In this document: piece by piece, positions 6,323 to 33,658 of the stretch
Position numbering within the stretch: the stretch's first letter is position 1
Layout: each line of letters begins with the position of its first letter
From: an uncultured Anaerolineaceae bacterium
Lineage (GTDB): Bacteria; Chloroflexota; Anaerolineae; Anaerolineales; UBA4823
Reading direction: 5' to 3'
NCBI GenBank assembly: GCA_964400875.1
Contig: CAYNWK010000002.1
Coordinates: 3,391 to 67,390, forward strand
Length of the DNA stretch: 64,000 bases
Translations under genes and position numbers: made by a program
Notes under the pieces: generated by a model
Databases searched by the model: none
Told to the model about the DNA's origin: nothing
Seen by the model: only the letters and a program-made list of their open reading frames with translations

Positions 6323-7128
6323 TCCGTGCTCAAACGCGCCGTCGCGCCGCCATCAACCACCAGGGCTTGACCGGTCATGAAGGAGGATTGTTCTTCGTCA
6401 GCCAGGAAATAAATTGCTCGGGCGATCTCTACAGGTTTCCCGATCCGCCCGATGACAGTCTTATCCGCAAGATTTTCCAGCCGTTCGGTCAGGCTGCCCG
6501 CCCCCACGTGGCCGCGGCTTAAGCCGGCGTGCAGCATGGGCGTGTCCACCGCGCCGGGCAGGATGGCGTTTGAACGAATGCCGTCCGGAGCGAATTCAAT
6601 TGCCATGGCGCGCGTTAGCGCCAGCAAGCCGCCCTTGCTGGCGGCATAGCTGGCGATGTTCGCCGAGGTGGCGATGGCGTGCACCGAAGAAACGTTCACG
6701 ATGGCACCCCCGCCCGCAGCCTTGAAAAGCGGATGGGCCAGCTTGGCGCTCAGGAAGACCGAACGCAGGTTCGATGCCAAGACCAGATCCCATTCCTCAG
6801 CGCTGGTCTCAAGCAGGGGCTTGGTAATCTGCACGGCAGCGTTGTTTACCAACGCGTCAAGGCGATCCGTAAACAACTGGGTTTGTTGGAAGATCGCTTC
6901 CAATTCCTGAGGATCTGAGATATCCGCCTGGATGAATAGGCTGGAGTCAGGGAACACACCTCCGTACGGCGCCCGGTCGACGGCGATAACGTTCCAATCC
7001 CTGGCAGAAAACACGTCCACCGTCGCCCGGCCAATGCCGCCAGCCGCGCCGGTGATCAGGACTGTCCTACGCTTACCGAGATGGTTAATTTTGTTCATTA
7101 TTCTGTTGATACTGGTAAATACAATCAA
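6319..7128 (-). CDS. Short-chain dehydrogenase/reductase (SDR)
   Basis: TGAAGGIGRA cofactor loop, NNAA, and the S...YAASKGG catalytic triad region. Confidence 0.85.
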   Translation of the reverse strand: MIVFTSINRIMNKINHLGKRRTVLITGAAGGIGRATVDVFSARDWNVIAVDRAPYGGVFPDSSLFIQADISDPQELEAIFQQTQLFTDRLDALVNNAAVQITKPLLETSAEEWDLVLASNLRSVFLSAKLAHPLFKAAGGGAIVNVSSVHAIATSANIASYAASKGGLLALTRAMAIEFAPDGIRSNAILPGAVDTPMLHAGLSRGHVGAGSLTERLENLADKTVIGRIGKPVEIARAIYFLADEEQSSFMTGQALVVDGGATARLSTE

Positions 7129-7156
7129 TCATCAAGTTCACTTCGACTATTTCGAC

Positions 7157-8119
7157 TCAACCTGCTTCTTTGAGGCTATCAACCGGCAGACCTAATCCGG
7201 AAAAGAGATTGCGCAGCGTATTCCAATGCACCCGTTCCCATGCGCTCGGGCTGGAATTGGCGTTGTGGGGCGCCAGCATCACCTGATCCATTTTGAGCAA
7301 GGGACTATCCAGTGGTAACGGCTCTACTTCGAAAACGTCGAGGGCAGCCCCTGCGATCACCTCTTGCTGAAGTGCATCCACCAGGTCTGGTTCGTCTACC
7401 ACCGGACCCCGCGAAGTATTGATCAGGATGGCGGTGGGTTTCATCAGCGCCAGCGTCTCCCGGTTGATCAAATGATAGCTGGATGGATTCAGATCGCAGT
7501 GCAAGCTGACGAAATCCGCTCGCGCCAGCAGATCCGCCAGCGAAGTCATCTCCACACCCTGCTCCAGGACGAAGTCGGGCGCGATGGCGATGATATCATT
7601 GCCTAATAATTTCATACCGAACCCTCGGGCGCGGCGCAGCACCGCTTTCCCGCAGTTCCCCACGCCAATGACCCCGAGAGTGCATTCGCTCAGCGAACGC
7701 CCGGGGAGCTTTTCCCAGCGTCCCGCCTTCATCGCTCGGTCCATCCAGGGTTGGCGGCGGGCGTAGGCTAGTAGGTAGCCCATCACCGTGTCCGCAACCG
7801 GCAGGGTGAAGGCGTTCGGCGTGTTGCCCACGCGAATACCCAGCCGGGCAGCGGCGCCTTGGTCAATGGAGTCGATCCCCGTGCCCCATTTCGAGATCAC
7901 CTTCAAGCGCGGCGCACAGGCGGAGAGTACCCGGTCGGTAAAGCGGTCATCGCCGCAAATCGCGCCGTCGAATTCTCCGGCGAGCGCCAGCAATTCCGCT
8001 TCCTCCAACCGCTCAGAGACCTGTGGGACGATCAGATCAATCCCACGGGCTTCAAAAAGTGGGCGAAATCGATCCAGGAAGGGGATCATGTAGGGGGCGG
8101 AAAAGAGCACGGTCGTCAT
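7157..8119 (-). CDS. D-isomer-specific 2-hydroxyacid dehydrogenase family (phosphoglycerate-dehydrogenase-like)
   Basis: GVIGVGNCGKAV NAD loop, LINTSRGPVVDE, DVFEVEPL, PHNANSS. Confidence 0.85.
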   Translation of the reverse strand: MTTVLFSAPYMIPFLDRFRPLFEARGIDLIVPQVSERLEEAELLALAGEFDGAICGDDRFTDRVLSACAPRLKVISKWGTGIDSIDQGAAARLGIRVGNTPNAFTLPVADTVMGYLLAYARRQPWMDRAMKAGRWEKLPGRSLSECTLGVIGVGNCGKAVLRRARGFGMKLLGNDIIAIAPDFVLEQGVEMTSLADLLARADFVSLHCDLNPSSYHLINRETLALMKPTAILINTSRGPVVDEPDLVDALQQEVIAGAALDVFEVEPLPLDSPLLKMDQVMLAPHNANSSPSAWERVHWNTLRNLFSGLGLPVDSLKEAG

Positions 8120-8787
8120 ATACCGTCCGCCCGCTGCATCAAGAACTCCGTGATGGCAAAATCCAGTTCCTCGTCGATGTCCCAGGCTTCGGCGGCGTCG
8201 ATCTCGAACAGATACGGGCGCTCTCCGATGCGATTGCGCTTTTCTTCCAGCGTCCGGCGGGTGAAGATGTACAGGCAGGAATTTTCCTCGAAAACCGGGG
8301 GCAGATCCTGCGTGCGAAGTAAGATCGCCGGATTATGATTGACCGCCCTTCCAAGCGAATCCCACAAACGCGTCTGCCAGCGGGTAACCGAAAACAGCGA
8401 ATCGTAACCAGGGTAATTTTCCAAATACACGTGGATGGCGCCCCGGATTGTCTCAGGCTGGAGCAGCGGGTTGGTGGTGTGAGTTTGCAGGTAGAAGTCC
8501 GCCTCGACCAGGGCCGTATCGTGGAGCAGCACCTCATTCATCGGCACATCCCCGGCTCGCAAGTGCTCCGGTCGATCGATCACCTGAACCTTGGGGAATT
8601 TCGTCTGTAATCCTGCGGCAATCTCCAGGCTGTCAGTGTCCACCACGATCGTATCGATCTCTTCGCAAACGGATAAGGTGTCCAGGATATAGTGATATAA
8701 CGGCTTACCCGCAAGAGGGCGGTAATTTTTACCCGGCACACGCTCCGAGTGATGCCGCATGGGTACAAGGGCTGCTAACTTCTTCAT
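8116..8787 (-). CDS. Cytidylyltransferase, acylneuraminate (NeuA/KdsB)-like
   Basis: ALVPMRHHSERVPGKNYRPLAGKPLYHY N-terminal signature. ATGA coupling at both ends. Confidence 0.7.
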   Translation of the reverse strand: MKKLAALVPMRHHSERVPGKNYRPLAGKPLYHYILDTLSVCEEIDTIVVDTDSLEIAAGLQTKFPKVQVIDRPEHLRAGDVPMNEVLLHDTALVEADFYLQTHTTNPLLQPETIRGAIHVYLENYPGYDSLFSVTRWQTRLWDSLGRAVNHNPAILLRTQDLPPVFEENSCLYIFTRRTLEEKRNRIGERPYLFEIDAAEAWDIDEELDFAITEFLMQRADGI

Positions 8788-9758
8788 CCTTCTTCCGTCG
8801 CGTCATTATAATGGATGGGTTTCACCTTCCTGGGCTCCACTGCGCTCTTCGAGCGGACCCCGCGAGGGTAATAAAAAGTCTGGCGCAGCTGCCAGGTCAG
8901 CGGGCCTGAATGCCGGAAACCCTGGTAGGTGCCCCAAAACTGCATAAAGCGAAAACCAAGGATACCGCTTAGCTCGGTGAACAAAGCTCCCTGCCGGGCA
9001 GCATGCCAGAGATCCACGGCGACGTTGACGGTGAACAGGCGCAGGAAATCCCACCAGTGAAAGCTTTCCCTGGGGAAGATGTGTTTGAAAGCCATCGACT
9101 CGCGCCGGTAGCGGTTGAAGATGCCCCGCAGCGTCTCGTCGTGCACGTGGATGACTTCCGCTTCCGCTGAATAAGCCACCTGGTAGCCTTGCTCCAAGGC
9201 CCAATGAGCCCAGGCGACATCCTCCAACCCGGACAGGGTTTCGTCATAGGCATGCTGCTCCCAGAGAACCCGCCGGATGGCAGCATTGGCATTGTTACAG
9301 AACGGGTGTTCTTGACGCGCTTGGGAGACTTCTGGGAACCAGTGGGCGAACACCTGATGCTCCGAAAACCGCGTGGTACCGTTGCCGCGCTGTTTTCCGT
9401 AAACGACAGCCACCTGCTCGTCTTTGAACGGCGCGAGCAGCCGTTCGATCCAGTCCGGGTAAACTGGATATACGTGGGCGCTGGCGAAAAGGATGAAATC
9501 GCTACTGGAGGCTGCGATCCCCCGGTTGAGCGAGTAACCAAAGGTGAAGTCCTCAGGGTGAATGCGCACGACCTTGACCGGGTAACGCGAAGCGATCGCC
9601 ACCGTCGCATCGGTGGAGCCGGAATCGACCAGGATGATCTCCGGTTCGGAGTAGCTCTGCTTCAAGACACCTTCCAGCAGGCGCCCTATGTGCTCTTCCT
9701 CGTTGAACGCCCGGATTACGATGGAACAGCGGGCCGACTCCGGGACATTACCAGTCAT
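8784..9758 (-). CDS. Family 2 glycosyltransferase
   Basis: CSIVIRAFNEEEHIGRLLEGVLKQ...LVDSGSTDAT. Start moved to ATG 9758, just inside the end of the upstream gene. The ORF-track N-terminus overlaps that gene by about 145 nt. Confidence 0.8.
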   Translation of the reverse strand: MTGNVPESARCSIVIRAFNEEEHIGRLLEGVLKQSYSEPEIILVDSGSTDATVAIASRYPVKVVRIHPEDFTFGYSLNRGIAASSSDFILFASAHVYPVYPDWIERLLAPFKDEQVAVVYGKQRGNGTTRFSEHQVFAHWFPEVSQARQEHPFCNNANAAIRRVLWEQHAYDETLSGLEDVAWAHWALEQGYQVAYSAEAEVIHVHDETLRGIFNRYRRESMAFKHIFPRESFHWWDFLRLFTVNVAVDLWHAARQGALFTELSGILGFRFMQFWGTYQGFRHSGPLTWQLRQTFYYPRGVRSKSAVEPRKVKPIHYNDATEEG

Positions 9759-10614
9759 AACCCATTTCGTAACCCAATGCAACCAGCAGGTCGCCGGCGA
9801 CCTCTTTAAATAACCGGGTGATCTCAGGCGTGAACCGATCCTTCCAGGCGCCCACTCGTCCTGCACGGAACGTAGGCGATCGCTGGGGGTCAATACTGCG
9901 CGCCAGAACGGCGACGGCGTGTTCCCGGTCCACCTTTATCGGGAAGCCGCGCCCGACGGCATGGCCCAGGATCAAAACCAGCGCATCATCCCGATGCTCG
10001 ACGAGATCCTCGAAGTGGATGACCAGCGTCCCAGGGCTCTCCAACCATCCCAGATAAGGCTCGAAGCGCGCCCGGATATCGGGGAAAGGATGCATCCAAT
10101 CCGGTCGGCCCAGGATGCTGGTCCGTAATTGGGCCTCATAGTTTTCGAGTTCCTGGTAATAATCATGGTGGGCATGGCGGGGGGCCATTTCGGTTACATA
10201 ATGCACGTGAGAGACAACCACGTCGCGAGGGTCGCGCAGGATGAAATAGTTTGCCACCCCCTCCCGATCGAGCAGATCGACGATTTGCGGGTGGGCGTGC
10301 AGGTGACCATAGGCAACGTCTCCTGGGCGCAGTCGCTGGACGTCCGCCTTGATCGCCGTCAACGGCCGCGGCTCTCCCGAATCGCCAGCATAAGTCACGA
10401 TCGCCGGCAGCCCGCTGTCCACTGCCGGGCCGAGCTCAGTGAAACCGTGCAGCACCTGGGTCAACAAATGCGTCCCGCTCTTCGGAAACGAATTGGCGAA
10501 CAGAACCGGCACGCCGGAGAAGGTCAGCTGGCGATAACGGGCCAGTTGGCTAATACGTCGTACCGCCCTGCGCGCCAACCTCGCCTGCAGCTCCAATGCG
10601 GCAGCCAAATTCAT
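9748..10614 (-). CDS. Sulfotransferase (PAPS-dependent)
   Basis: 5'-PSB FPKSGTHLL and 3'-PB LRDPRDVVVSH motifs. Confidence 0.8.
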   Translation of the reverse strand: MNLAAALELQARLARRAVRRISQLARYRQLTFSGVPVLFANSFPKSGTHLLTQVLHGFTELGPAVDSGLPAIVTYAGDSGEPRPLTAIKADVQRLRPGDVAYGHLHAHPQIVDLLDREGVANYFILRDPRDVVVSHVHYVTEMAPRHAHHDYYQELENYEAQLRTSILGRPDWMHPFPDIRARFEPYLGWLESPGTLVIHFEDLVEHRDDALVLILGHAVGRGFPIKVDREHAVAVLARSIDPQRSPTFRAGRVGAWKDRFTPEITRLFKEVAGDLLVALGYEMGYDW

Positions 10615-10629: not shown

Positions 10630-11544
10630 CTACCAGTCATGATCGTCTTCGTAACCCAGGCGGATGAGCAGATCGCCGGCCGCTGCCTTAAAACACGCTT
10701 TGTTCGCCGGGGTGAAGTGCTCTCGCCAGTTCCCAGGCTGACCTTTGCGAAAAGTCCCGGATTTGCCGGGGGCCACGGCCATGGCCAAAGACTCGATTGC
10801 TTTGGGACGCGGCAAATTCACCTTGAAGCTGCGCTCAGCCAGGTAACCCAGTAAACGTTCAAGTGCTTTCCAGCGGTCAAGGATTAAATCCTCAAAACGC
10901 AGGCTCAGTACCTGCGGCTGGCTGAGCCAACCCAGGTACTGTTCGTAACGAGCGCGCACACCGCGCAGCTCAAAACCCGGTTGATCCACCCCCTGGATGG
11001 CCGCGTTGAGGCGCGCCTCCATGCTGTCCAGGTCTTGAGTGTAAAAATCGTGCATGCCATGTTCTGGACGCATCTGCGTGGCGTAAAAGACGTGGGAAAC
11101 GAGCATATCCCGGGGGTCCCGGTAGAGGAAGATCGTGGCTCGTCCCCGTCGGGTGAGTTCAGAGAGGTAAGGTTCTTCCGCGCCCAGGTAGCCGTAGGCG
11201 ACGTCCCCCGGGCGCATGGCGCGCAGGTTTTCCAGGATTGCGTGCGGGGGCAAATTCCGGTTATCTTCAGCCCGGTTGATTGGCGGGAAACCCGGATTGA
11301 CGCTGGGCCCTAACCTGGTCAGACCCTGCAGTACTTGGCTGATCAGATGAGAGCCGGATTTGGGCATGGCGTTCCCGAAAACGATCGGCGACTGCTGCAG
11401 CGCCGCCGCGCCCCAACGCAGGCTGGCTGCGGCGCGCCGCCACCGCCAGCGCACAAGTTTGAGAGCGCGCTTGACCCGGTAGTACGGCGTGATTTCGTGG
11501 TTCACGAGGGAGCGGTTAATTTTCCCCTCGAAGGAAGTTTCCAC
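10630..11544 (-). CDS. Sulfotransferase (PAPS-dependent), tandem paralogue
   Basis: 5'-PSB MPKSGSHLI and 3'-PB YRDPRDMLVSH motifs. GTG start. Confidence 0.8.
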   Translation of the reverse strand: METSFEGKINRSLVNHEITPYYRVKRALKLVRWRWRRAAASLRWGAAALQQSPIVFGNAMPKSGSHLISQVLQGLTRLGPSVNPGFPPINRAEDNRNLPPHAILENLRAMRPGDVAYGYLGAEEPYLSELTRRGRATIFLYRDPRDMLVSHVFYATQMRPEHGMHDFYTQDLDSMEARLNAAIQGVDQPGFELRGVRARYEQYLGWLSQPQVLSLRFEDLILDRWKALERLLGYLAERSFKVNLPRPKAIESLAMAVAPGKSGTFRKGQPGNWREHFTPANKACFKAAAGDLLIRLGYEDDHDW

Positions 11545-13243
11545 CGTGCAGAATGCCGTCTACCAGAACCCGGATAGTATTATCCGACCGGATAGTATTA
11601 TCCGACCGGATAGTATTATCCGACCGGACGGTATCCGCCTGGCTGGTACCCTGTCGCGGCGGCGTAAGTTCCTCCCAGGAAAATGCACGCAGTTTCACGT
11701 AACCAGGTCGAGGGTGAGGCTCGATGTAATCCCCAAAAGGAAGGGAGGCTTTCTCCAGCTGGTAGTACAAAAAACGGCGGGCGTTGCGTTGGTATTCTTC
11801 CGGCAGTTCTATCGCGCCCGGCTGGGCTAAAAACAGCTCCGCCTGCCGGCGATAGGCCTCAGCCGAATCGGGGAAGAAAACTATCGGGTACTGCGTAAAG
11901 CGCGCCTTACCGCCGCACAGCACCGGCACGCCCATCAAAGTCGCTTCCAACCCGATCGATGAGTTGTAAACCATCACGAATTTCGCCTTCTGAATCAGCT
12001 CGTAAGAACTCAAATATTCCACCGGCTTGATGAAGATTACATTGGGCAGCCGGTCCACCTGATTGCGCTCGACCCAGTCCTGGACGCTCTCCCGGCTCTG
12101 CTTCCCGGTTCCGGGACGCATTTCATCCGGATGGGCGCGAATCACGAATAGGGTTTCCGGGTGCGCCCGGATGATCTCCAGGATCTGGTCGAGCCAGGCA
12201 AACATATGCGGGAATAAGACATTCGCATGCACCTGGCTGGTATCGTAAACTACGTTGGTAAATACCGGCACGATCTGGTTGAAACCGGCCGACTTGCGTT
12301 CGAACGCCTCTCCTAACCTCTGCATATCCGGCCAGAAGCGGATGCCTGCCATGGTGAACTTGCCCTGAAAGCGCCCACTCAGATACTCATCGAGGCGCGC
12401 GTTTTGCTCGTCGTCCAGCTCGAATTCCTCGGGAATGTCGATGGGATACGCCGTGGCGTGCCTTTCGCTGAAAAACGCCGATTGGGGTTTGAAAGCCACC
12501 TCGTGCGTGATCACCCGTACGCCGGACTGCTGCGCTACCCAGCGCGCCGAGGCTTCCGGGTACATCAAGCCGTTGAACACCACCACGCACTGCGGTTCTA
12601 CACGCTGCAGCAAATCGCGGAAACTTACGCCAACGTGATACGCTGATTGGATATATTCGCGGAACAGGTAACGGGTGGGTTCATCGTCCGGCAGGTTGTG
12701 GACGCGCAGCGCCCAGCGCAAAGAGGGCGTTACCAGGCTGCCCAGCGGCATCACCGGCAGTCGCTCCTCGGGATCGGGTAAGCGCCATGCAAAATCCATC
12801 AAAGCGGGAACGTTCAGATCCTCCAGCGCAGCACCCAGAGCCGAACTGCGCCGAAAAGTGAACCATTCCGTCGGCGCGTGGGCGAACATCCGCTCGGCTT
12901 GGACGATGCAGCCTTGGCATGGCGGAGGCTTGGTGTAATCCCTCCGGTTGGTTCCCAGGACGCAGTGGCTCATGCCGGATCTACAGCCAAAGTAGATCAC
13001 CGGGGCGCCGGCTAACTGCACTCCACAAGCCGCCAGAAACGCGAAGGTGCTGTTTAAACTCATCCCGGTCAGCCGTGTGGAGGCATTGAAAAACACCACC
13101 GGCGGCTCATCTTTGGAGAGGCGCGCCTTCACAGCAATCTTGCGGGTCAGCCGGAACAACCGCCAATTGTTGCGCGCCTCCGCCAGATTGAAGCGCAGTC
13201 TGCGTTGAAGGCTAAGAGTATTGGCCATCAACCGCGGCAGCAA
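11516..13243 (-). CDS. Capsule_synth (KpsC/KpsS-like) glycolipid/ulosonic-acid transferase candidate with a repeat-encoded C-terminal tail
   Basis: IRAHPDE...FVMVYNSSIGLEATLMGVPVLCGGKARF matches the HP...T.NS.VGLEAL..G.PV...G pattern of KpsC/KpsS. The tail is RSDNTI x3. Confidence 0.5.
   Translation of the reverse strand: MLPRLMANTLSLQRRLRFNLAEARNNWRLFRLTRKIAVKARLSKDEPPVVFFNASTRLTGMSLNSTFAFLAACGVQLAGAPVIYFGCRSGMSHCVLGTNRRDYTKPPPCQGCIVQAERMFAHAPTEWFTFRRSSALGAALEDLNVPALMDFAWRLPDPEERLPVMPLGSLVTPSLRWALRVHNLPDDEPTRYLFREYIQSAYHVGVSFRDLLQRVEPQCVVVFNGLMYPEASARWVAQQSGVRVITHEVAFKPQSAFFSERHATAYPIDIPEEFELDDEQNARLDEYLSGRFQGKFTMAGIRFWPDMQRLGEAFERKSAGFNQIVPVFTNVVYDTSQVHANVLFPHMFAWLDQILEIIRAHPETLFVIRAHPDEMRPGTGKQSRESVQDWVERNQVDRLPNVIFIKPVEYLSSYELIQKAKFVMVYNSSIGLEATLMGVPVLCGGKARFTQYPIVFFPDSAEAYRRQAELFLAQPGAIELPEEYQRNARRFLYYQLEKASLPFGDYIEPHPRPGYVKLRAFSWEELTPPRQGTSQADTVRSDNTIRSDNTIRSDNTIRVLVDGILHGGNFLRGEN
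11571..11639. repeat. 18-bp tandem repeat: three perfect units plus one degenerate unit, each self-complementary
   Basis: cggatagtattatccgac occurs at 11571-11588, 11589-11606 and 11607-11624, followed by cggacggtatccg. Both CGGATA-GTAT-TATCCG (within a unit) and TATCCG-AC-CGGATA (across units) are palindromes. Confidence 0.95.
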
Positions 13244-13276: not shown

Positions 13277-15199
13277 CTAACCGCTGCTGGCAGTTTGGAC
13301 CTCATCGACGGCGCGGAAGTAAGCCTCGGACAGGCGTTGGATGGCGATGCGGAAACCCTCGCCCTGGCGCTGGTGACCGCGCCAGATCTCCGGGATCATA
13401 GTGCCCCTATAGCCATCCGGTTGACCGGCGCCGATCATCTTGAAGAATCTGACCCAATCTATGGTGCCCTCCCCGATTTGCAAGCCTTCCCCATCCAGGC
13501 CGGCCCCGTCGGACAGATGTAAATGCCGGATGTATGGAAGTAGGACCAGGACTTGCTCAAAGAAGTCCACGTGCGCCCAGTTGCAGTACAGCTTGGCGTG
13601 GGAGGTGTCGAAGCACATATTCAAGTCGAGAGGGGTGATGAAATCCCGTATTTCGTAAGCGTCCATGAAAGCATTGGTAAGCCACTGCCCGCCGAAATAC
13701 CATGGATGCGGCGGCAAATTCTCCAAAAGGAATTCCACCCCGGCGTAGTCTAAAGCTTCCACCGAGCGGCGCAGGTTATCGTAGAGCGCCTGGCGATCTT
13801 CGACGGGGTGATCCAGGCTCATGCCGCCGGTGTGCACCACCACTTTGGGGGTTCCGACGAAGTGCGGCGCTATTTCGCGGGTCAGATCGATGCTCTTCTG
13901 GATCAACGCCAACGACTGGCGGCGCTGGCGCTCGTCGATGGCGCATAAATCCACCAGGGTACGCTCGAAGAACTCTGGCGCGTGCACGACCAATTTAAGG
14001 TCGAAATCTTGGCCTGGATAATGCTCGTCCAGGTCCTGGTCGGTAAAATGGAACTCGAGCATGCGGGGGTGGTACTCCAACAGCTCTTCAAAGTCGCGGA
14101 AGCGCACAGTGAAGCCCCACTCCATGGGGAGCGTATGCGCTTCGTCCAGGATCACCTCAACGCCTAAATCTTTCTCCAAAAAAGGCTCGTCCTCCTCGAT
14201 CTCCCTGGTTGCCACCCGCCCGATCAATTCGTCGTAGTGCTGCGGCGAAATGCCCAACGCCGGTCCTTTGACCGTCACCAGTTCGGCGGTGATGATCTCT
14301 CCCGCTTGGATACAGCGAGCTGCGACTAAGCTTTTCCCCAATACCTCACGATTGAGGATTTCACCGCGCGAGATATATTTCTCCTCGCCGGTGCCCAACG
14401 CCTCCCTGACCTGCTGTATATCCCGCACCATCTTCCTGAATCCCTGGGGCTCCAGGCTTGCAGCGTGGTCGGGACCGTCCATTGTGCGGTCCAGGGTAAT
14501 ATGCCGCTCGATGATGTTGGCGCCCAACGCGGTAGCAACCGTGGAAACGGCGATGCCGCGTTCGTGCCCGGAATAGCCCACCGGGACGCCAAACCGGCGC
14601 AAACGGTCCATAAAGCGCAGGTTGATGTCCTCAAAGGCGGCGGGATAGGTGCTGTTGCAGTGCAGCAGCGCAAATTCCGCGCCGCGCTGATTGAGGAACC
14701 GGACGGTGGTCTCGACCTCTTCCATCCTGGACATCCCGGTCGAAAGGATGATCGGTTTGCCCTTATTGACCAAGTGGTCCAGCAAGGGCAGGTTGGTCAG
14801 GTCGGCTGAGGCGACTTTGTACGCCGGCACTCCCAGCTCCTCCAGGAAATCGGCGCTCTCGATATCAAACGCCGAGCACATGAAGATGATAGCTTTATCC
14901 CGGCAATATTCAACGATGCGGTGATAAGCACGGTCGGGCAGCTCAACCCGCTGCAGGATCGGCAGGAGGTAACGCAACGTCTTTTCACCGGCGTTGGCGT
15001 TATCCAGGTATTTTTTAGCGTACAGGCTCTCCAGATTGCGCTTTTGAAATTTAACCGCATCAGCGCCGGCATCTACTGCAGCATCGACTAGCTCCAGAGC
15101 CAGCGGCAGCAAGCCATTGTGGTTCACGCCGATCTCGGCGATCACAAAAGCAGGGTGGCCATCGCCGATCAGGCGATCGCCGATCTTTATCACAGGCAT
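13277..15199 (-). CDS. NeuB-type ulosonic acid synthase (with SAF domain) fused to a xylose-isomerase-like TIM-barrel domain
   Basis: N-terminus: FVIAEIGVNHNG...GADAVKFQ. C-terminal ~290 aa: VVHAPEF, FLLENLP, CFDTSHAKL, HLHLSDG...GEGTIDW (AP_endonuc_2/sugar-phosphate isomerase fold). Confidence 0.8.
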   Translation of the reverse strand: MPVIKIGDRLIGDGHPAFVIAEIGVNHNGLLPLALELVDAAVDAGADAVKFQKRNLESLYAKKYLDNANAGEKTLRYLLPILQRVELPDRAYHRIVEYCRDKAIIFMCSAFDIESADFLEELGVPAYKVASADLTNLPLLDHLVNKGKPIILSTGMSRMEEVETTVRFLNQRGAEFALLHCNSTYPAAFEDINLRFMDRLRRFGVPVGYSGHERGIAVSTVATALGANIIERHITLDRTMDGPDHAASLEPQGFRKMVRDIQQVREALGTGEEKYISRGEILNREVLGKSLVAARCIQAGEIITAELVTVKGPALGISPQHYDELIGRVATREIEEDEPFLEKDLGVEVILDEAHTLPMEWGFTVRFRDFEELLEYHPRMLEFHFTDQDLDEHYPGQDFDLKLVVHAPEFFERTLVDLCAIDERQRRQSLALIQKSIDLTREIAPHFVGTPKVVVHTGGMSLDHPVEDRQALYDNLRRSVEALDYAGVEFLLENLPPHPWYFGGQWLTNAFMDAYEIRDFITPLDLNMCFDTSHAKLYCNWAHVDFFEQVLVLLPYIRHLHLSDGAGLDGEGLQIGEGTIDWVRFFKMIGAGQPDGYRGTMIPEIWRGHQRQGEGFRIAIQRLSEAYFRAVDEVQTASSG

Positions 15200-15275: not shown

Positions 15276-16034
15276 TTAGCCTAGCTGGAAGCCCAGATCG
15301 TCCAAGCTGAGCTCCCCGCTTTCGACCAGCCGCTCGGCGCGGCGCCAGTCATCCGCCGAATCGATATCGATCCAGTCTGCCGCGTCTATCACGAGCGGCA
15401 GAATACGCTCCCCCGTCATTGAATTCTTTTCCAGAAAAGTCCTGGACCAGGCCGCATCCACATAGCCGGTCTGCCAATAAACTTCCGGCAGCGCCTGGCG
15501 CGGCATATTGTAAGCCTCGGGGTATTCCGTCTCGATGAGCGGGTGCATGATCCCTTCCGGATCGATCCGCCACATCTTGTAAGGGTTTTGAAAAGGAACG
15601 CAAACCGTGCGCACCGAATCGGCCTGCGGATGCTCCCTCAACCGCGCCACCGCCTGGTCGATATGGCTGACCCGCCGCAGAGGAGAGGTCGGCCGCAGCT
15701 GGACGACGATCTCCGGATGGTAATCTTCCTGCTCCGCCAGCCAGTGCAAGGCGTGCTGAAAGACAGGCAGATCGGGTGTGTCGTCTTGGGAGTACTCCTG
15801 CGGACGGGTAAACGGCGCCTCCGCACCGTAGTCCAGGGCAATCTGCCGGATGTTTTCATCGTCCGTAGATACGATCACCCGAGCGACACTCCGGGCAGCC
15901 AGCCCAGCGGCGATGCTGTAGGCAATTAAAGGGCGTCCGGCAAAAAGACGGATATTTTTATGGGGAATGCTCTTGGAACCGCCTCGGGCGGGGATCAATG
16001 CCAGCGTTTCGAGCTGACTCACCATGCCGTCCAA
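15276..16034 (-). CDS. Acylneuraminate-type cytidylyltransferase (CMP-ulosonic acid synthetase)
   Basis: ALIPARGGSKSIPHKNIRLFAGRPLIAYSI signature. Confidence 0.8.
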   Translation of the reverse strand: MDGMVSQLETLALIPARGGSKSIPHKNIRLFAGRPLIAYSIAAGLAARSVARVIVSTDDENIRQIALDYGAEAPFTRPQEYSQDDTPDLPVFQHALHWLAEQEDYHPEIVVQLRPTSPLRRVSHIDQAVARLREHPQADSVRTVCVPFQNPYKMWRIDPEGIMHPLIETEYPEAYNMPRQALPEVYWQTGYVDAAWSRTFLEKNSMTGERILPLVIDAADWIDIDSADDWRRAERLVESGELSLDDLGFQLG

Positions 16035-16864
16035 CCGCCGTCTACTACCAGGTTGGCGCCGGTCATATAACTGGAGGCGTCGGAGGCCAGGAAAAGCAGC
16101 GCGCCATTGAGCTCGTCTTTCTCAGCCATGCGTCCCAAGACCGTGCGGGCAGCGTAAGCTTGCAGGAATGCATCGTCGTGCTGGTCGAACACGCCGCCCG
16201 GCGAGAGCGCGTTGACGCGGATATTCTTACCGGCGTAGTAGGTCGCCAGGTAACGTGTCAAGCCTAAAAGCCCGGCCTTGGTCACCGAGTAATAAACAGG
16301 TTTGTACTGAACTTCTACGCCCGCTCGCTGGTAGAGCCGCTGGTCGGGCCCGACCAGGCCGTAGATCGAACACAAATTGACGATCACACCCCCGCCCTGG
16401 CTGAGCATCGGTCGGATGGCAGCCTGGCTGGCGAGAAAAACACCGGTCAAGTTGACGTCCAGCGCTTCTCGCCAGGCCTCCAGGGGATAATCCTCAAAGG
16501 CGTTGGCGAGCTCCTCCGGCGCCTTCTCCGTTTGGCCGGGAGCGAACTTCGGATCGCGTGCTGCACTGTTGACCAGGATATCCAGACGCCCAAAGCGCTC
16601 CAGTGTCTCCGCAACCAGCCCCTGCACGGACTGGGCTTGGGTGACATCGGTTTGAACGGAAATAGCTTGCGGCGCGTCCGCTGGCTGCCCTTCGTTCAGA
16701 GCGCTGCTTATCGCTTCCGCTCCGCCACCATCCAAATCGGCGACCACCACCCGCGCGCCGGCCTGCGCCAGAGTCCGGCAAAATTCCGCACCCAGCAAGC
16801 CGGCTCCGCCGGTGACGATGGCGACCCGCCCGTACAGATCGAACTTTTCAGGCAGGCCGGGCAT
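16019..16864 (-). CDS. Short-chain dehydrogenase/reductase (SDR)
   Basis: VTGGAGLLGAEF cofactor loop, NSAA, YSVTKAG. Confidence 0.85.
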   Translation of the reverse strand: MPGLPEKFDLYGRVAIVTGGAGLLGAEFCRTLAQAGARVVVADLDGGGAEAISSALNEGQPADAPQAISVQTDVTQAQSVQGLVAETLERFGRLDILVNSAARDPKFAPGQTEKAPEELANAFEDYPLEAWREALDVNLTGVFLASQAAIRPMLSQGGGVIVNLCSIYGLVGPDQRLYQRAGVEVQYKPVYYSVTKAGLLGLTRYLATYYAGKNIRVNALSPGGVFDQHDDAFLQAYAARTVLGRMAEKDELNGALLFLASDASSYMTGANLVVDGGWTAW

Positions 16865-16869
16865 GCAGG

Positions 16870-18693
<1,824 letters not shown>

Positions 18694-18939: not shown

Positions 18940-19998
18940 CTAGAGCAGTCCTTCGCGACCGGTCTCAATCAACCGTACCAGCCGATTTTCCCGGGCTGAA
19001 AGATGAGCTGCCAGCGCCAACTTCAAAGCCTGGATGCCGTCACCTAGCGTACAGCGCGGCGCACATTCGCCGCGTGCTACCCCAAAAAAGTGGGCCATCT
19101 CCTCCAGGAACATATCGTTGCGTTCAAAATCCGGGCCAGGTTCGTACCGCACCCAACCCGGTCCAGATTGCCCTTCCACTGGTGAGGAGCTGTCCTCCCC
19201 CCGATAATAGGCACAGCTGCCGTCGTAATTGTCCCAACGCAGCACGCCTTTGCTGCCCACGATCTCCAGGGAGTGTTCAGTCGGGCGGCGGCTGAAATCC
19301 AGGTGGACGCTGCCCAATTGTCCTTGCTCGAAGCGCAGCCCGATCTCGGCGGTATCTTCGACTGCCAGTTCGAATTCGTTCAGTTGATCCTTGAAAGCCC
19401 AAACCGCCTCGACCTCTCCCAGCAGCCAGCGGACATAATCCAGCGGATGGCACAGGGTAAGGATCACACCACCACCCAGGTCGCCTCGCGCGCTGTAGCC
19501 GACCCGGTAGTCTTCCCAGGGATGCATCCCGGGGAGGTATTCCGCGTAGACCGCCCGCAGGGACAAGGGCTGCCCGATCTCGCCGTCCTGCAGCCAGCGC
19601 GCCGCCTGCTGCAAGCCCGGATGAAATCGAAATTGAAATCCGACCAGCGCCTGACCGCCTCCCTGTTCTACGGCGTCTGCCAGCTCCTCCACTCGCGCCA
19701 TCGAGTGGGAGATCGGCTTCTCAAGGAGCAGAGGGCAGCCCCTCCTGGCGGCAGGGATGGCGACATCCAGGTGCAGGGCGGTCGGGTTGGAAACGATCAC
19801 CCCATCCGGCTGCAGGTCGAGTGCTTCGTCCAGGTCGGTCACCACCTGGAAGCCTGCAATATCGGCCTCGGGCAGTGTGCTTTGATGGGTGCGGTACAGC
19901 AGGATCTCGTGGGCTTCGCCGTTGCGCTCCCCTAAGGCAACCAGGTTGCGCAGGTGGCGGCGCCCAACGGAGCCGAGACCGGCGATTAGAAATCTCAC
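18940..19998 (-). CDS. Gfo/Idh/MocA family oxidoreductase
   Basis: MRFLIAGLGSVGRRH Rossmann N-terminus, EKP motif (LLLEKPISH). Confidence 0.85.
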   Translation of the reverse strand: MRFLIAGLGSVGRRHLRNLVALGERNGEAHEILLYRTHQSTLPEADIAGFQVVTDLDEALDLQPDGVIVSNPTALHLDVAIPAARRGCPLLLEKPISHSMARVEELADAVEQGGGQALVGFQFRFHPGLQQAARWLQDGEIGQPLSLRAVYAEYLPGMHPWEDYRVGYSARGDLGGGVILTLCHPLDYVRWLLGEVEAVWAFKDQLNEFELAVEDTAEIGLRFEQGQLGSVHLDFSRRPTEHSLEIVGSKGVLRWDNYDGSCAYYRGEDSSSPVEGQSGPGWVRYEPGPDFERNDMFLEEMAHFFGVARGECAPRCTLGDGIQALKLALAAHLSARENRLVRLIETGREGLL

Positions 19999-20027: not shown

Positions 20028-21590
20028 TTATGAATTGCGATAAGGTTCGTTGACCGCCTGCAGCTTGGTCTGCAGCTCTTGGCTGAGCTCGCCTGCTAGC
20101 GCACCGCGCGTATCGTAGAGATCTTCCAATTCCTCGGGGTCGTTCTCGAGGTCGTAGAGTTCGTAGACGCTGGTGTAGTCATCGTAACCGAAGTAATGGA
20201 TCAGCTTATACGGCCCTTTGACCATCGAGACCGTCCCCCTGGTAAAAGGCGCTATGCGCGGGTTGGTCTTGCCATCCATCGTAAAGACGCTGCGGTCGTC
20301 GGCAGAACTGTTCTCGCTAAAGGTGGGCAGGATGCGTCCCTCGCTCCACGCCGGCGCAGGCAAGCCGCTTACGTAGCATAAGGTCGGCAGCAGGTCCACA
20401 CAGCTGGTGGGCATGCTTACGTCAATTCGTTTCCGCTGACCCGGGCTGGAGATCAACAGGGGTATCCTGGTCAACGGCTCATACAACGTCTGGGTGATGT
20501 GCTCCAGGATGCCTCGTTCGAACATCTCGCCGTGGTCGGAGGTCACCACCAGGTATGTGTTTTCCAACAAGCCGTTCTGAGCCATGAAATCATAAAGGCG
20601 TCCGAATTCGGCGTCAGCGTAGGCGATGAACTCGTCATATTCGCGCCTTTTCTCTTCTAACTGCTCCTGTTGATGGCCTTGTGTAAAGTGATGAGCAGGT
20701 TTGGTTGGCGTGTGGAAACCGTCATTCAAAAACATATCGTAGAACTCACGGCGGGTATTGTAGGGTTCGTGAGGCGGCATCATATGGAAATAGCCCAGGT
20801 ACGGGCGCGGCGAATTGGAAACCTGCCCCGCGATCCAGTCGATGGCGTCCTCAAGCAGAAATAACAGCGGGGCCGCGTTAGCGGACGGTATCCCGCGAGG
20901 GAATAGTTCCTTGTAGGCGCGCTGGAGATCGTTGCCTTTGTTCGTGCGCCACAGCCGGTGCAGGGTAGAAACGAATAAAGTGCTGGGGATCTTGTGATCT
21001 TTGCCGCGCAGCGCCAACCGTTCACCCATGAACTCGACGTTGTGATCGTTTACAAACAGCCCATCGGCCAGGATCTTCTCGTAATACAGGGCCAGCTCTT
21101 TGGTTTTCTTGAAAAGGTCGATGTCCTCACTGAACTGGTACAACAGCATCCCTGCCAGGTCGTTGTGAGTGTACGCCATGCGGTTGTACGTATTCGCTGG
21201 AAAAGCGCTGAATAAGTTCTGTCGGAGGTAATCCCGGATCACCCGGCCGTACACGTGAAAGGCGCGGTGGGACCAGGGATAGGTACCAGTCAACAGGGAA
21301 GACGCGCCGGGGGTGGTAAAACTACCGCCGGCGTAGTGCCGGTTGAACACCGTGGCGCGTTCGGCGAAGCGGCGCAGGTTGGGCGTATTGTCGCGCGGGT
21401 AACCGTACAGCGATAGATTCGTCGCCGAACAGGCATCGAAAACTAGGACCAGGATGTTCGGCGCATTCGGATTCTGCGAGGGACCTTGCGGCTCACCGCC
21501 CAGTTCGTTGAAGAGATCGAAAGGCACCTTCAGGAGCGGCAGCAGCGCCAATAATTTTAAGAAATCACGTCGGCTTAAATCTGAGTGCAT
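20028..21590 (-). CDS. Tat-exported sulfatase-fold (alkaline phosphatase superfamily) enzyme lacking the C/S-x-P-x-R formylglycine motif
   Basis: SRRDFLK twin-arginine signal. NILVLVFDA metal site, TSDHGEMF. FTTPGASSLLTG sits where sulfatases carry CxPxRxxxLTG. Confidence 0.7.
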   Translation of the reverse strand: MHSDLSRRDFLKLLALLPLLKVPFDLFNELGGEPQGPSQNPNAPNILVLVFDACSATNLSLYGYPRDNTPNLRRFAERATVFNRHYAGGSFTTPGASSLLTGTYPWSHRAFHVYGRVIRDYLRQNLFSAFPANTYNRMAYTHNDLAGMLLYQFSEDIDLFKKTKELALYYEKILADGLFVNDHNVEFMGERLALRGKDHKIPSTLFVSTLHRLWRTNKGNDLQRAYKELFPRGIPSANAAPLLFLLEDAIDWIAGQVSNSPRPYLGYFHMMPPHEPYNTRREFYDMFLNDGFHTPTKPAHHFTQGHQQEQLEEKRREYDEFIAYADAEFGRLYDFMAQNGLLENTYLVVTSDHGEMFERGILEHITQTLYEPLTRIPLLISSPGQRKRIDVSMPTSCVDLLPTLCYVSGLPAPAWSEGRILPTFSENSSADDRSVFTMDGKTNPRIAPFTRGTVSMVKGPYKLIHYFGYDDYTSVYELYDLENDPEELEDLYDTRGALAGELSQELQTKLQAVNEPYRNS

Positions 21591-21612: not shown

Positions 21613-22149
21613 TCAAACGTTGCGCAGCACGATGATAAAAATGCTCAGCGCGTCCAGCCCCAGGTAAATAAACGAGAGCACCATGAGCCGTTCAGCAGCG
21701 CCGGATAGCGCCATTTCTAGTTTCTTATAATGTTGGATCAAGAATGAACCGACTGCGATGGCGACGAGGATCGCAGCAAAACCAAGCAGCAGCCCATTGA
21801 CCGACCACATGTTCCCGGCGCCGCCCTGAGTGTGAGCCAGCACTGCCCAGGCGGAGACGACCAGCGCGGCCAGGCTGCCCTGGGCGACGAACCTGTCCAG
21901 GAACCAGCGCTTCGGCAGGATAAAGCCGAGCGCGAGGACTCCGGCAAGCAGTAGAAGGCTATCGACCAGGGCGAACAACTGGGTGTAGGCAATCCCGCCG
22001 AGTAACTCCCAGATGTTCATGTACAGAATCCAGGCCGGCACTTCCTGCAAGACGTTATAGATCGACCAGATATGGGTGATAAACACGCAAACCACGAAGG
22101 TGGCAAGCAGCTCCGGGCCGGATGGCAGCCGGTCCCTAAAGATAGCCAA
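21613..22149 (-). CDS. Small integral membrane protein, unknown function
   Basis: 178 aa with about 5 hydrophobic helices. No motif recognised. Confidence 0.45.
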   Translation of the reverse strand: MAIFRDRLPSGPELLATFVVCVFITHIWSIYNVLQEVPAWILYMNIWELLGGIAYTQLFALVDSLLLLAGVLALGFILPKRWFLDRFVAQGSLAALVVSAWAVLAHTQGGAGNMWSVNGLLLGFAAILVAIAVGSFLIQHYKKLEMALSGAAERLMVLSFIYLGLDALSIFIIVLRNV

Positions 22150-23971
22150 GGCTTTTCAATCGCTCCTCGACCACCTCTTGGTCTTCGTCTCCCCCGCTCG
22201 GCGGCGGCGCCGCGCCGCTATCGACAAGGTCTTCCCCGATCGACAACCGGGGGATATCCCGGTAGGAAGGGCTTGCCAGCTCGCCCAGGTGCTGGTTAGA
22301 GAACAATACACCGGGCACAGCCGCGGCGTGGAAGCAGTGGTCGCCAGACCAGTGATCCCGGTTGGGTTCGATTGCTTCAGGTTCCCAGCGGCCCAATCCG
22401 GTCTGAGAAGAAGCCCGGTATCCCGGCGCAAAGCCAACCAGCAGGTCAGGCGCGTATTCGCTCAACGAACCCGCGAAAACCTCGTCCCTGCGGTAGACTT
22501 TTGTGACGACCGGTTCTCCGTCCGGACCGCGCCAGCTTTCTAGCTGGGCGGCGAGCTGCTGGCGCAACGAGTCCGTCTGATCGGCTTCGACAATGCCCTG
22601 GCCCTCGCGCCCGTCCAGATTGAAATAGATGCTGTTCAGTCCCAGGGCATAGGCTCGGCTCTGCGACCAATCCACGTACTGCAGATCCGCGGAGGGATTT
22701 TCGTTATGCGGGGTCAAAAAGCCCTGGTCGATCAGCCAGCGGTTCAAATGTACTTTATGATCGAACCGGTTGAACCCATGGTCGGAAACCACCAGGACTC
22801 GGGTAAGCTGCATCCCGCCCTTGCCCAACTGCTTGGCGACCTGCCCCACCAGCCCATCCAGCTTCGTATACCAGCGCTCGATCACGTCCTGCCGATCGCG
22901 CCAGAACATGTGCTGGATGCGATCAAGCGAATCGAAAACGACGCCAATGACGCCTTCCCGGAAATCGGATAATTGGTCCATCAGGATCTTCGCCCTGGTT
23001 TCGACGATCGAATCGCACAGGTCCAAGAACTGCTGGTCGTCGATGAAACCTTCCTCGAGCCCGGTGGTATCCTGCGGCCAGCCGATGGTCAAAAACGGCC
23101 CACCGGCTTCCCAGGCGCGTTTAACGAAACCGCCCGGCGTGCCATAACGCCAGAGCGATTGCAGCGGGTGCAGCTGCAGCGGCAGCGAATACAAGCGGAT
23201 TTCCGGTTGAAGTTTGGTGATGATGATCCGCGTCAGCGCGCGGATCTTTACGAAAAACCCGACTTTGAAAGTCAGCTCCAAAATCGGACTCCACTCACCG
23301 ATGGTCAAGTCGATCTGTTGGTCGTCCAGCTTTACGCGCGCCGAGCGGTCATCGATCAAATCGATCTCCAGCGGCAGGCCGGTTTCCTTGACGTTCCAGC
23401 GCGACTTGCGGATCGGCCCTTTCAGGGTTCCGCTGAAACGGCCCTTCCCGGTTGAGGTCAGATGCTCGACCGGAGTCTTCAGGTCTTCGCCCTCAAAACC
23501 GGCTTCAGAGGTGAAGAAGATCCCCACCCCCAGCTTGCCGTGGATATCCGGCGTGCCCAGCCCCGGCAGCGTATTGAGCGGCGAACCCAGCCGGGCTGGG
23601 AACATTGCCGGCCACCACATCATCGAGGCGGGATATCCCCGCCGGACGGCCTGATCGAACAATGTATTGGCGTTGAACGGTGGAACGAACTGTGAACCTC
23701 CCAGGCCCTGTTTTGTCGGCAGCAGGGATACAAAAGGCGCATAGTTCTTCGGGTTGCGGTGGACGAAATCGAAGATCCCGTGCCCGCCCGGGTTCAGCCC
23801 GGTGGCAATACTCGTCCAGGAGACCTCGCTTTGGGGCGGGTTTGCGACTTCGAAGCGGGCGTAGAATCCATCGTCCAGGAAACGCGTCAGGTTCGGTAAA
23901 GAGCCCGACGCGGAAAGCCGCTCGAAAATTCCCGGATCGAAAGCGTCCAGGCCGAGGATAAGTGTTCGCAT
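22136..23971 (-). CDS. Alkaline phosphatase superfamily protein, nucleotide pyrophosphatase/phosphodiesterase-like
   Basis: ILGLDAFDPG N-terminal metal site, TSIATGLNPGGHGIF, VVSDHGF. Confidence 0.65.
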   Translation of the reverse strand: MRTLILGLDAFDPGIFERLSASGSLPNLTRFLDDGFYARFEVANPPQSEVSWTSIATGLNPGGHGIFDFVHRNPKNYAPFVSLLPTKQGLGGSQFVPPFNANTLFDQAVRRGYPASMMWWPAMFPARLGSPLNTLPGLGTPDIHGKLGVGIFFTSEAGFEGEDLKTPVEHLTSTGKGRFSGTLKGPIRKSRWNVKETGLPLEIDLIDDRSARVKLDDQQIDLTIGEWSPILELTFKVGFFVKIRALTRIIITKLQPEIRLYSLPLQLHPLQSLWRYGTPGGFVKRAWEAGGPFLTIGWPQDTTGLEEGFIDDQQFLDLCDSIVETRAKILMDQLSDFREGVIGVVFDSLDRIQHMFWRDRQDVIERWYTKLDGLVGQVAKQLGKGGMQLTRVLVVSDHGFNRFDHKVHLNRWLIDQGFLTPHNENPSADLQYVDWSQSRAYALGLNSIYFNLDGREGQGIVEADQTDSLRQQLAAQLESWRGPDGEPVVTKVYRRDEVFAGSLSEYAPDLLVGFAPGYRASSQTGLGRWEPEAIEPNRDHWSGDHCFHAAAVPGVLFSNQHLGELASPSYRDIPRLSIGEDLVDSGAAPPPSGGDEDQEVVEERLKSLGYL

Positions 23972-31445: not shown

Positions 31446-31490
31446 CTTTTGCCCTTTATCTTGAACCCCTTGCCAAGCATCGGTCGTCGA

Positions 31491-32585: not shown

Positions 32586-32589
32586 AAGA

Positions 32590-33657: not shown

Positions 33658-33658
33658 A

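Follow-up and report, generated by a model that had tools for sequence, protein, structure and literature searches.

A NeuB-SAF-TIM barrel fusion in an uncultured Anaerolineaceae bacterium is a candidate bifunctional ulosonic-acid-9-phosphate synthase/phosphatase

A 64,000-nucleotide stretch of contig CAYNWK010000002.1 (positions 3,391 to 67,390 of the forward strand; assembly GCA_964400875.1) from an uncultured Anaerolineaceae bacterium, hereafter the window, encodes P0001, a protein of 640 amino acids (aa) in which a NeuB-type synthase with its SAF domain is fused to a C-terminal metallo TIM barrel. The fusion is genuine, the catalytic and metal residues of both halves are intact, NeuB and the TIM barrel are tightly coupled among the relatives, and the neighbouring genes are conserved. 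We infer a phosphorylated substrate, phosphatase chemistry and ketodeoxynonulosonic acid (Kdn, also written KDN) as the sugar. P0001 may thus be a bifunctional ulosonic-acid-9-phosphate synthase/phosphatase, most likely converting mannose 6-phosphate (Man-6-P) to Kdn-9-phosphate (Kdn-9-P) and then to Kdn, a reading to which we give roughly an even chance.

In the proposed route, the NeuB-SAF module would condense phosphoenolpyruvate (PEP) with a phosphorylated hexose, likeliest Man-6-P and possibly also N-acetylmannosamine 6-phosphate, yielding Kdn-9-P in the Man-6-P case. The barrel would belong to the MJ1311/endonuclease-IV branch of the xylose-isomerase-like superfamily and act as a metal-dependent phosphoesterase that strips the 9-phosphate, standing in for the HAD-type phosphatase of the Bacteroides and animal pathways. 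The free ulosonic acid would be activated by the cytidylyltransferase encoded 76 bp upstream, and a KpsC/S-like transferase, encoded 33 bp downstream, may add it to a sulfated polysaccharide.

The gene is a single open reading frame (ORF) on the minus strand with an ATG start, 640 codons and a stop. A plus-strand reading of 13277-15199 was rejected, as that frame is riddled with stops. The gene and its parts are as follows.

13277..15199, minus strand: whole fused gene P0001, NeuB-SAF-TIM barrel, 640 aa (ORF translation, three Pfam domains, mean predicted local distance difference test score (pLDDT) of the model 92.7)
14384..15091, minus strand: NeuB catalytic domain, aa 37-272, the predicted PEP plus aldose condensing module (PF03102, E 2e-87)
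14165..14332, minus strand: SAF (antifreeze-like) domain, aa 290-345 (PF08666, E 6e-12)
13280..14137, minus strand: C-terminal MJ1311/endonuclease-IV-like metallo TIM barrel, aa ~355-640 (PF01261, pLDDT 95.3, VIA Z 26.8 to 3wqo)

The NeuB and SAF matches are both above their Pfam cut-offs (292.9 bits vs 22.1 and 46.5 bits vs 21, respectively). The AP_endonuc_2 match (PF01261) covers aa 397-621 (E 2e-29; 103.3 bits vs a cut-off of 31.1), and a profile made from relatives widened the barrel to about aa 355-628. AlphaFold2 predicted a (beta/alpha)8 fold for the barrel alone, with a pLDDT of 95.3 and a predicted template modelling score (pTM) of 0.93. The full-length model has a pLDDT of 92.7 and a short linker, none of it disordered; because its pTM is 0.67, the relative orientation of the domains is not fixed. 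A first-pass annotation, made from the letters alone, had proposed one 640-aa ORF with a complete NeuB/SAF module joined to a barrel. The profile searches and structure prediction bear this layout out, with three domains confidently modelled throughout, and the motifs it quoted (IAEIGVNHNG, VVHAPEF, LENLP, CFDTSHAKL, HLHLSDG and GEGTIDW) are all present in the translation.

The synthase half resembles characterised enzymes over their full length. Residues 4-336 align with Neisseria meningitidis NeuB (1xuu/4ipi; E 5e-54) and residues 16-338 with Campylobacter jejuni PseI (8h2c; E 2e-49). The N-terminal 345 aa of P0001 share with these proteins the NeuB and SAF domains and intact Mn-ligand histidines. 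At the 'sdHt' and 'erHf' histidines of 4ipi/1xuu, which we take to be His215 and His236, the Mn ligands of N. meningitidis NeuB, P0001 has H212 and H233; among 37 fused relatives H233 is invariant and H212 is at least 90% conserved. Unlike P0001, the Neisseria and Campylobacter enzymes stop at the SAF domain and take unphosphorylated sugars. The synthase half scores below the NCBIfam equivalog cut-offs of both NeuB_NnaB (TIGR03569; 360.2 bits vs 399.65) and PseI (TIGR03586; 257.8 bits vs 340.25), so that neither model assigns it a substrate or product. A non-canonical ulosonic-acid route is therefore plausible, in keeping with the earlier suggestion of a non-standard ulosonic acid.

The fusion is not an artefact, because an uninterrupted P0001 match of at least 600 aa is found in 75 of 80 species-level Anaerolineales assemblies from many studies. 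The 120 nearest proteins in a collection of 5.8 billion are all 627-657 aa long and 78-99% identical to P0001, with an identical domain set. Names among them include 'N-acetylneuraminate synthase family protein [Anaerolineales bacterium]' and 'sialic acid synthase SpsE/sugar phosphate isomerase/epimerase', and the JGI annotation of the fusion describes a two-domain protein. The source is a metagenome-assembled genome (MAG) of 5.2 Mb in 409 contigs (92% complete, 5.7% estimated contamination), where two separate genes might be joined by a sequencing or assembly frameshift, but the probability of this is negligible and an assembly artefact is excluded by the 75 unbroken relatives, by the fusion in 15 of the 24 other genera of the window's own family and in all 120 nearest proteins, by its presence in a complete Ensifer replicon and by the short, confidently modelled linker.

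Relatives of the fusion are widespread. A species-level scan (one genome per prokaryote species, motif EGLQIGEG, alignment of 10 sequences) retrieved at least 438 genomes encoding a relative with the exact motif. The best 80 of these are the loci compared here; all are Anaerolineales/Chloroflexota MAGs, so no broader taxonomy follows from them. Outside the window's own family, 3 of 16 genomes drawn from the remaining families of the order carry the fusion, and among 300 genomes sampled evenly over the phylum a barrel at E <= 1e-10 was found only in the window's own genome. These scans, which are samples and no proof of absence, suggest that within Chloroflexota the barrel is limited to one family and a few sister families.

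A HMMER search with the barrel alone against 1.84 billion cluster representatives returned 800 clusters (50% identity) at E <= 1e-3, 130 of them at E <= 1e-30. Among the best 150 representatives, 69 are of fused length: 33 have the NeuB-SAF-TIM length (590-700 aa) and 36 exceed 700 aa; 26 are of stand-alone size. By Pfam, the representatives above 700 aa are CBS-NeuB-SAF-TIM proteins, a CBS-extended form of about 750 aa. In a quick and poorly resolved tree of 119 barrels, with length classes blurred by truncated metagenome gene calls, all 36 CBS-type proteins fall in one supported clade, P0001 lies outside it, and 12 stand-alone barrels cluster together. A protein-atlas look-up of the barrel gave generic 'xylose isomerase-like' clusters only.

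Stand-alone barrels also point to NeuB. Three of the four inspected sit directly downstream of a NeuB or NeuB-SAF gene (46%, 43% and 40% identical); the stop and start overlap in two of these split pairs and a 58-bp gap separates the third. The functional coupling of the two halves proposed in the first-pass annotation is thereby supported. NeuB, in fused or neighbouring form, is therefore the one constant partner of the barrel. One split pair, on a metagenome contig (L108:2545-5114), is directly followed by a cytidylate-kinase-family gene instead of CTP_transf_3. The fourth barrel is an archaeal-type, MJ1311-like stand-alone protein (P0196, 34% identical; L110:4820-6828) that overlaps the stop of a class I/II aminotransferase gene. 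No NeuB gene lies near P0196, so members of the wider MJ1311 clade may act on another substrate.

The fusion is also present in a cultured bacterium, Ensifer canadensis T173. On its replicon pT173e, a gene for a mannose-6-P isomerase/GDP-mannose pyrophosphorylase comes first, then CTP_transf_3 and then a CBS-NeuB-SAF-TIM gene whose product is 42% identical to P0001 end to end. The PLSDB record of this region has no annotated gene (L107:5331-9888, corresponding to NZ_CP083371.1 ~899840-904397); the DNA encodes ManC/PMI, CTP_transf_3 and the fusion, then glycosyltransferases. E. canadensis thus offers a tractable organism for studying the fusion.

A profile built from 31 barrels was searched against the PDB, with the following matches.

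MJ1311 (3wqo): E 1e-17
Endonuclease IV, Mycobacterium tuberculosis (5zhz): E 7e-11
Endonuclease IV (8axy): E 2e-7
Endonuclease IV (1xp3): E 2e-6
Endonuclease IV (2x7v): E 8e-5
Endonuclease IV, Escherichia coli (1qtw): E 0.03
D-tagatose and L-ribulose 3-epimerases: E 0.02-0.05

Structure comparison (Foldseek, VIA) likewise singles out MJ1311 (Z 26.8, root-mean-square deviation 2.3 Å over 246 residues, 24% identity). The runner-up is the isomerase Art22 (Z 24.4), followed by ketose epimerases, xylose isomerase, UlaE and endonuclease IV at about Z 23. Fold comparison does not tell endonuclease IV apart from the epimerases and isomerases.

The predicted metal ligands of the barrel are H406, H456, E493, D531, H534, H561 and E604. 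Five of them were mapped by profile alignment to E. coli K-12 Nfo (H456 to H109, E493 to E145, D531 to D179, H534 to H182 and H561 to H216); H406, in the HAP motif, and E604 fall on the first and last endonuclease IV ligands in HMMER alignments with Gram-positive and mycobacterial enzymes. We take the trinuclear zinc ligands of endonuclease IV to be H69, H109, E145, D179, H182, H216, D229, H231 and E261. Seven of these nine therefore align in P0001, including the core Glu-Asp-His-Glu set (E493, D531, H561 and E604). The loop with D229 and H231 is lost through a four-residue deletion in the NeuB-linked barrels, where an invariant GEG (E571) takes its place. Seven residues are invariant in 119 cluster representatives (E382, H406, D531, H534, H561, E571 and E604) and D564 is kept in 118; E382, D564 and E571 are specific to this family.

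Residues 456, 493 and 494 (window ~13718-13834) vary together. They are H/E/N in P0001 and many short fusions, and N/Q/T in all 36 CBS-type proteins, in Ensifer and in part of the others, a correlated switch that points to a metal centre in two versions. Gln replaces E493 in every one of the 36 CBS-type proteins and in 33 other relatives; P0001 has both glutamates, E493 and E604. The counterpart of E493 is, as we understand it, a catalytic base Glu of ketose 3-epimerases. The replacement by Gln in CBS-type relatives makes a phosphoesterase role likelier than sugar rearrangement. With D229/H231 deleted, and H456/E493 changed to N/Q in the CBS-type, the site is not a conserved trinuclear endonuclease IV centre. 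The histidines equivalent to H69 and H109 are presumably lacking in ketose epimerases, judging from the D-tagatose 3-epimerase structure. The barrel site looks more like an endonuclease IV centre that has been trimmed than like the site of a ketose epimerase.

The first-pass annotation had taken the barrel to be of an isomerase/epimerase/dehydratase type. So specific an assignment is not supported, given that the nearest profile matches are MJ1311 and endonuclease IV, with the ketose 3-epimerases far behind, and that the barrel has the additional endonuclease IV histidine ligands. The possibility it had raised that the C-terminal half lacks metal or catalytic residues can be set aside, as seven endonuclease IV ligands are present.

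MJ1311 of Methanocaldococcus jannaschii, deposited as a 'D-tagatose 3-epimerase-like protein', is the best sequence and structural match of the barrel and shares its HAP, HxG, EN, DxxH, HxHxxD and GEG motifs, yet it is a stand-alone archaeal protein. We take MJ1311 to retain all nine endonuclease IV ligands, the D229/H231 pair having been lost in the NeuB-linked clade. A literature search on MJ1311 found nothing useful. Endonuclease IV (Nfo; 1qtw, 5zhz, 2x7v) is a phosphoester-cleaving metalloenzyme of the same fold. P0001 differs from it in the loss of D229/H231, in showing no evidence of DNA-binding features and in its fusion to a sugar-acid synthase. A DNA-repair role of the barrel is very unlikely, because of that fusion and the location in glycan loci. 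Endonuclease IV has 3'-phosphatase activity, and the barrel has a weak NCBIfam match to the CbiR phosphodiesterase.

The architecture itself is already known, abundant and twice in print, so the novelty claimed for it in the first-pass annotation falls away. Ricaldi et al. (2012; PMC3438082) described the fusion in Leptospira and inferred a C-terminal phosphatase: in an animal-like route, PEP and a phosphorylated hexose would give a phosphorylated nonulosonic acid (NulO) that is dephosphorylated by the fused domain. The mechanism proposed for the Leptospira interrogans NulO synthase is the one favoured here for P0001; the leptospiral protein belongs to another phylum and another locus (the leptospiral NulO cluster), its function was likewise deduced, and its likeness to P0001 is drawn from the description. 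Anderson et al. (2022; PMC9000132) reported that neuA and a 2241-bp neuB, extended by a COG1082 domain, are the only such genes of the KL1/KL2 capsule loci of Serratia marcescens. Strains with these loci produce KDN and N-acetylneuraminic acid at about 20:1, and deletion of neuB abolishes sialic acid and capsule (PMC9000132). The Serratia NeuB is like P0001 in joining NeuB to a COG1082 'sugar phosphate isomerase/epimerase' domain beside neuA in a polysaccharide locus. At about 746 aa it belongs to the CBS-NeuB-SAF-TIM length class (N/Q/T at 456/493/494), not to the 640-aa form, and it too is likened to P0001 by description. P0001 matches this published architecture, with an N-terminal NeuB, a C-terminal AP_endonuc_2/COG1082 domain and an adjoining CMP-ulosonic-acid synthetase gene. 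A literature search joining nonulosonic acid with xylose isomerase found no paper.

The proposed chemistry (PEP plus hexose 6-phosphate to a 9-phosphate, dephosphorylation and CMP activation) is that of the Kdn-9-P synthases of Bacteroides thetaiotaomicron and Prymnesium parvum and of human NANS/NANP. Kdn-9-P synthases strict for Man-6-P are documented, with a separate HAD phosphatase in B. thetaiotaomicron and none identifiable in Prymnesium (Wagstaff et al., 2018; PMC6200933). P0001 differs in having a fused TIM-barrel metalloenzyme as candidate phosphatase and no HAD domain; the barrel, if a phosphatase, would therefore be a non-homologous replacement.

The fused gene lies in a compact module whose other members are as follows.

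15276..16034, minus strand: putative CMP-ulosonic-acid cytidylyltransferase (CTP_transf_3, PseF/NeuA-like), 76 bp upstream of the fusion (PF02348 E 1e-21; TIGR03584 PseF 165 bits, below cut-off)
11516..13243, minus strand: KpsC/KpsS-like (Capsule_synth) putative ulosonic-acid transferase, 33 bp downstream (PF05159 E 2e-8; NCBIfam BFO_1060-family glycosyltransferase E 1e-10, below cut-off)
16019..16864, minus strand: PtmA-like short-chain dehydrogenase/reductase (SDR) (adh_short_C2 E 1e-50; PRK09186 194 bits and FlagModPtmA 138 bits, both below cut-off)
18940..19998, minus strand: GFO/IDH/MocA oxidoreductase (GFO), PtmF-like by family (PF01408, PF02894, PF22725)
16870..18669, minus strand: bifunctional ATP sulfurylase/APS kinase (3'-phosphoadenosine 5'-phosphosulfate (PAPS) synthase), inside the module and given as context only (NF004040 856 bits, above cut-off)

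Among the 80 related loci, where contig ends limit the counts, Capsule_synth lies no more than 8 kb from the fusion in 67, the cytidylyltransferase and the SDR in 61 each, the PAPS synthase in 47 and the GFO gene in 37. CTP_transf_3 also lies directly upstream of the fusion in unrelated metagenome loci and in Ensifer. Minimal loci contain only a cytidylyltransferase and the fused gene, and are without NeuC, PseB and PseC genes. Neither a HAD phosphatase nor a NeuC- or PseG-type hydrolase was detected among the 50 window ORFs scanned with Pfam, P0001 itself having no HAD match, and no HAD phosphatase was present among the called neighbours in nine other fusion or barrel contexts. NanE and a type II mannose-6-P isomerase were not found in the source genome, which at 92% completeness makes their absence uninformative.

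Several lines of evidence favour the synthase/phosphatase reading. The closest profile matches of the barrel are MJ1311 and endonuclease IV; it keeps seven of nine ligands, belongs to a superfamily that includes phosphoesterases and has NeuB as its constant partner. Minimal two-gene loci with no sugar-preparing genes fit a substrate drawn from central metabolism, and no HAD phosphatase was seen in the loci scanned. In Ensifer, a mannose-6-P isomerase gene stands directly upstream of neuA and the fused neuB. The Serratia genetics, with KDN made by strains that have neuA and a fused neuB, point the same way, as do the 9-phosphate route proposed for Leptospira and the known Kdn-9-P synthases strict for Man-6-P.

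A number of observations weigh against this reading. D229 and H231 of endonuclease IV are deleted in the barrel, and H456/E493 are N/Q in all 36 CBS-type proteins, the group that by length should include the KDN-making Serratia type. Fold matches do not discriminate, as endonuclease IV, epimerases and isomerases all lie near Z 23 with Art22 second-best. GFO and SDR genes recur as neighbours, both here and beside a stand-alone TIM-CBS gene, and such a pairing is usual for barrels that isomerise or epimerise keto-sugars. Directly downstream of the fusion in one CBS-type locus stands a NeuC-like gene, which would supply an unphosphorylated sugar. Two other phosphoesterases of the window (Phosphodiest, 22136-23971, and Exo_endo_phos, 56192-57235) could dephosphorylate the intermediate. 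The phosphatase role given to this barrel clade in the literature was itself deduced, and P0001 is compared with the Serratia and Leptospira proteins through their published descriptions.

The best-surviving alternative, which follows the first-pass annotation and which we nevertheless regard as unlikely, is a keto-sugar isomerase, epimerase or eliminase. Here the GFO enzyme would make a keto-sugar, the barrel would rearrange the carbon beside the carbonyl and the PtmA-like SDR would re-reduce it, giving an unusual aldose for NeuB or a modified ulosonic acid. Pfam places the barrel in the xylose-isomerase-like family, the canonical Glu-Asp-His-Glu ligands are present, and Art22 and the ketose 3-epimerases and xylose isomerase are as good structural matches as endonuclease IV. 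A GFO dehydrogenase with a xylose-isomerase-like barrel is a known pairing (IolG/IolI, DgpA/DgpBC, LgdA/LgdB). The frequency of SDR and GFO genes near the fusion in the 80 loci fits such a pairing, as does an unrelated metagenome locus in which a TIM-CBS gene is directly followed by GFO/IDH/MocA and SDR genes. However, sequence profiles place the ketose epimerases far below MJ1311 and endonuclease IV, and E493, the counterpart of the presumed catalytic base, is replaced by Gln throughout the CBS-type group and in many other relatives. Several minimal loci have no GFO or SDR genes along with the fusion, reportedly including Serratia KL1/KL2 (PMC9000132). PtmA (an SDR), LegF (a cytidylyltransferase) and PtmF (an oxidoreductase) also co-occur in legionaminic acid clusters lacking any barrel of this kind (PMC4481668), so the SDR and GFO genes next to the fusion need not work with the barrel.

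Less probable still is a hydrolase that frees the reducing sugar for NeuB from GDP-mannose, another nucleoside diphosphate (NDP)-sugar or a sugar 1-phosphate, replacing a NeuC/PseG/LegG-type enzyme. Every NeuB pathway needs a free aldose, and such a role would explain NeuB as the only constant partner. The window has two NeuB genes but lacks Epimerase_2, NeuC and PseG genes, the source genome's single strong Epimerase_2 gene being located on another contig. In Ensifer a gene for GDP-mannose pyrophosphorylase is found just upstream, one locus has NDP-sugar dehydratases and reductases around the fusion and no hydrolase seen, and CbiR, though a weak match, shows that the superfamily can cleave small-molecule phosphodiesters. 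Against these points, cleavage of an NDP-sugar phosphodiester leaves a sugar 1-phosphate in place of a free aldose and would call for a second step, and the barrel would be redundant where a NeuC-like gene stands beside a CBS-type fusion. To our knowledge, NDP-sugar hydrolases are Nudix or GT-B enzymes. Some other chemistry on the ulosonic acid takes up the remaining probability. A 3'-phosphoadenosine-5'-phosphate phosphatase role, prompted by the adjacent PAPS synthase gene, was rejected, as the constant partner is NeuB, including in loci that have no sulfotransferases.

The module is part of a glycan locus of about 57 kb (window 93-57235) with all genes on the minus strand. It contains five sulfotransferases (3510-4481, 9748-10614, 10630-11544 and 25929-26966, plus weak-scoring pair members), a sulfatase (20028-21590), the type I phosphodiesterase (22136-23971) and several GT2/GT4 glycosyltransferases. 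Export genes (Wzm/Wzt, 38405-40707; a Wzx-like flippase, 52215-53582) and sugar genes (GDP-mannose 4,6-dehydratase, 48384-49352; UDP-glucose dehydrogenase, 54737-56056) are also present. The locus is a candidate for making a multiply sulfated glycan of the envelope or of the extracellular polymeric substances (EPS).

Two further cytidylyltransferase modules lie on the minus strand of the window. The second ulosonic-acid module (30648-35650) encodes a PseB-like dehydratase (34646-35650), an RmlD-like reductase (33726-34796), a GT4 glycosyltransferase, CTP_transf_3 (30648-31445) and a stand-alone NeuB-SAF protein (32590-33657) about 35% identical to the fused N-terminal domain; no aminotransferase and no NeuC/PseG-type hydrolase were seen in it. 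The third (5465-8787) comprises CTP_transf_3 (8116-8787), a D-2-hydroxyacid dehydrogenase (7157-8119), an SDR (6319-7128) and an MptE/Maf-like gene (5465-6322), and is kept in relatives (L016). Related genera (G323, G321) carry an extra gene pair between GFO and PAPS synthase (L015:14595-16691, L017:16418-18603), absent from the window. One gene of the pair encodes a cytidylyltransferase of about 400 aa, the other a NeuB of about 290 aa that lacks SAF and is 45-48% identical to the fused N-terminal domain. In another locus (L022:1165-9612), a 657-aa fusion that has no SAF match lies amid NDP-sugar dehydratases and reductases, radical SAM/SPASM, a SIS_2 phosphosugar isomerase and Capsule_synth, a context that hints at a more heavily modified ulosonic acid.

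What is specific to this window is the H/E/N form of the metal site, the cytidylyltransferase-fusion-KpsC/S-like module conserved across many Anaerolineales genera, and the large, multiply sulfated glycan locus with its own PAPS synthase. Anaerolineales are common in anaerobic granular sludge. KDN and sulfated glycoconjugates are common in granular-sludge EPS (Chen et al., 2023; PMC10483923), and a locus of about 57 kb with five sulfotransferases and a PAPS synthase is a candidate source of the KDN-bearing sulfated polymers of such sludge (PMC10483923).

We propose tentatively, and with somewhat less confidence than the enzymatic reading itself, that the NeuB-linked barrels form a new non-HAD class of sugar-acid 9-phosphate phosphatases, built on an endonuclease-IV-like site minus the third-metal loop and occurring in two flavours, H/E/N and N/Q/T, that differ in their metal centre. 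The Anaerolineales fusion would then catalyse the committed step in a CMP-Kdn route that is complete in itself and feeds a multiply sulfated extracellular polysaccharide; the KDN and sulfated glycoconjugates measured in granular-sludge EPS would thereby be explained at the gene level.

Nonulosonic acids, which are sialic-acid-like, shape bacterial surfaces, capsules and biofilm matrices. Genome surveys usually tag every NeuB homologue as 'N-acetylneuraminate synthase', which masks both the sugar and the route. The fusion marks a widespread and probably phosphate-dependent route, with genetic support in Serratia, where the product is KDN. If the barrel is the missing phosphatase, it would represent a new enzyme class in the xylose-isomerase-like superfamily, suggest a function for MJ1311-like proteins and make Kdn-type pathways recognisable from sequence.

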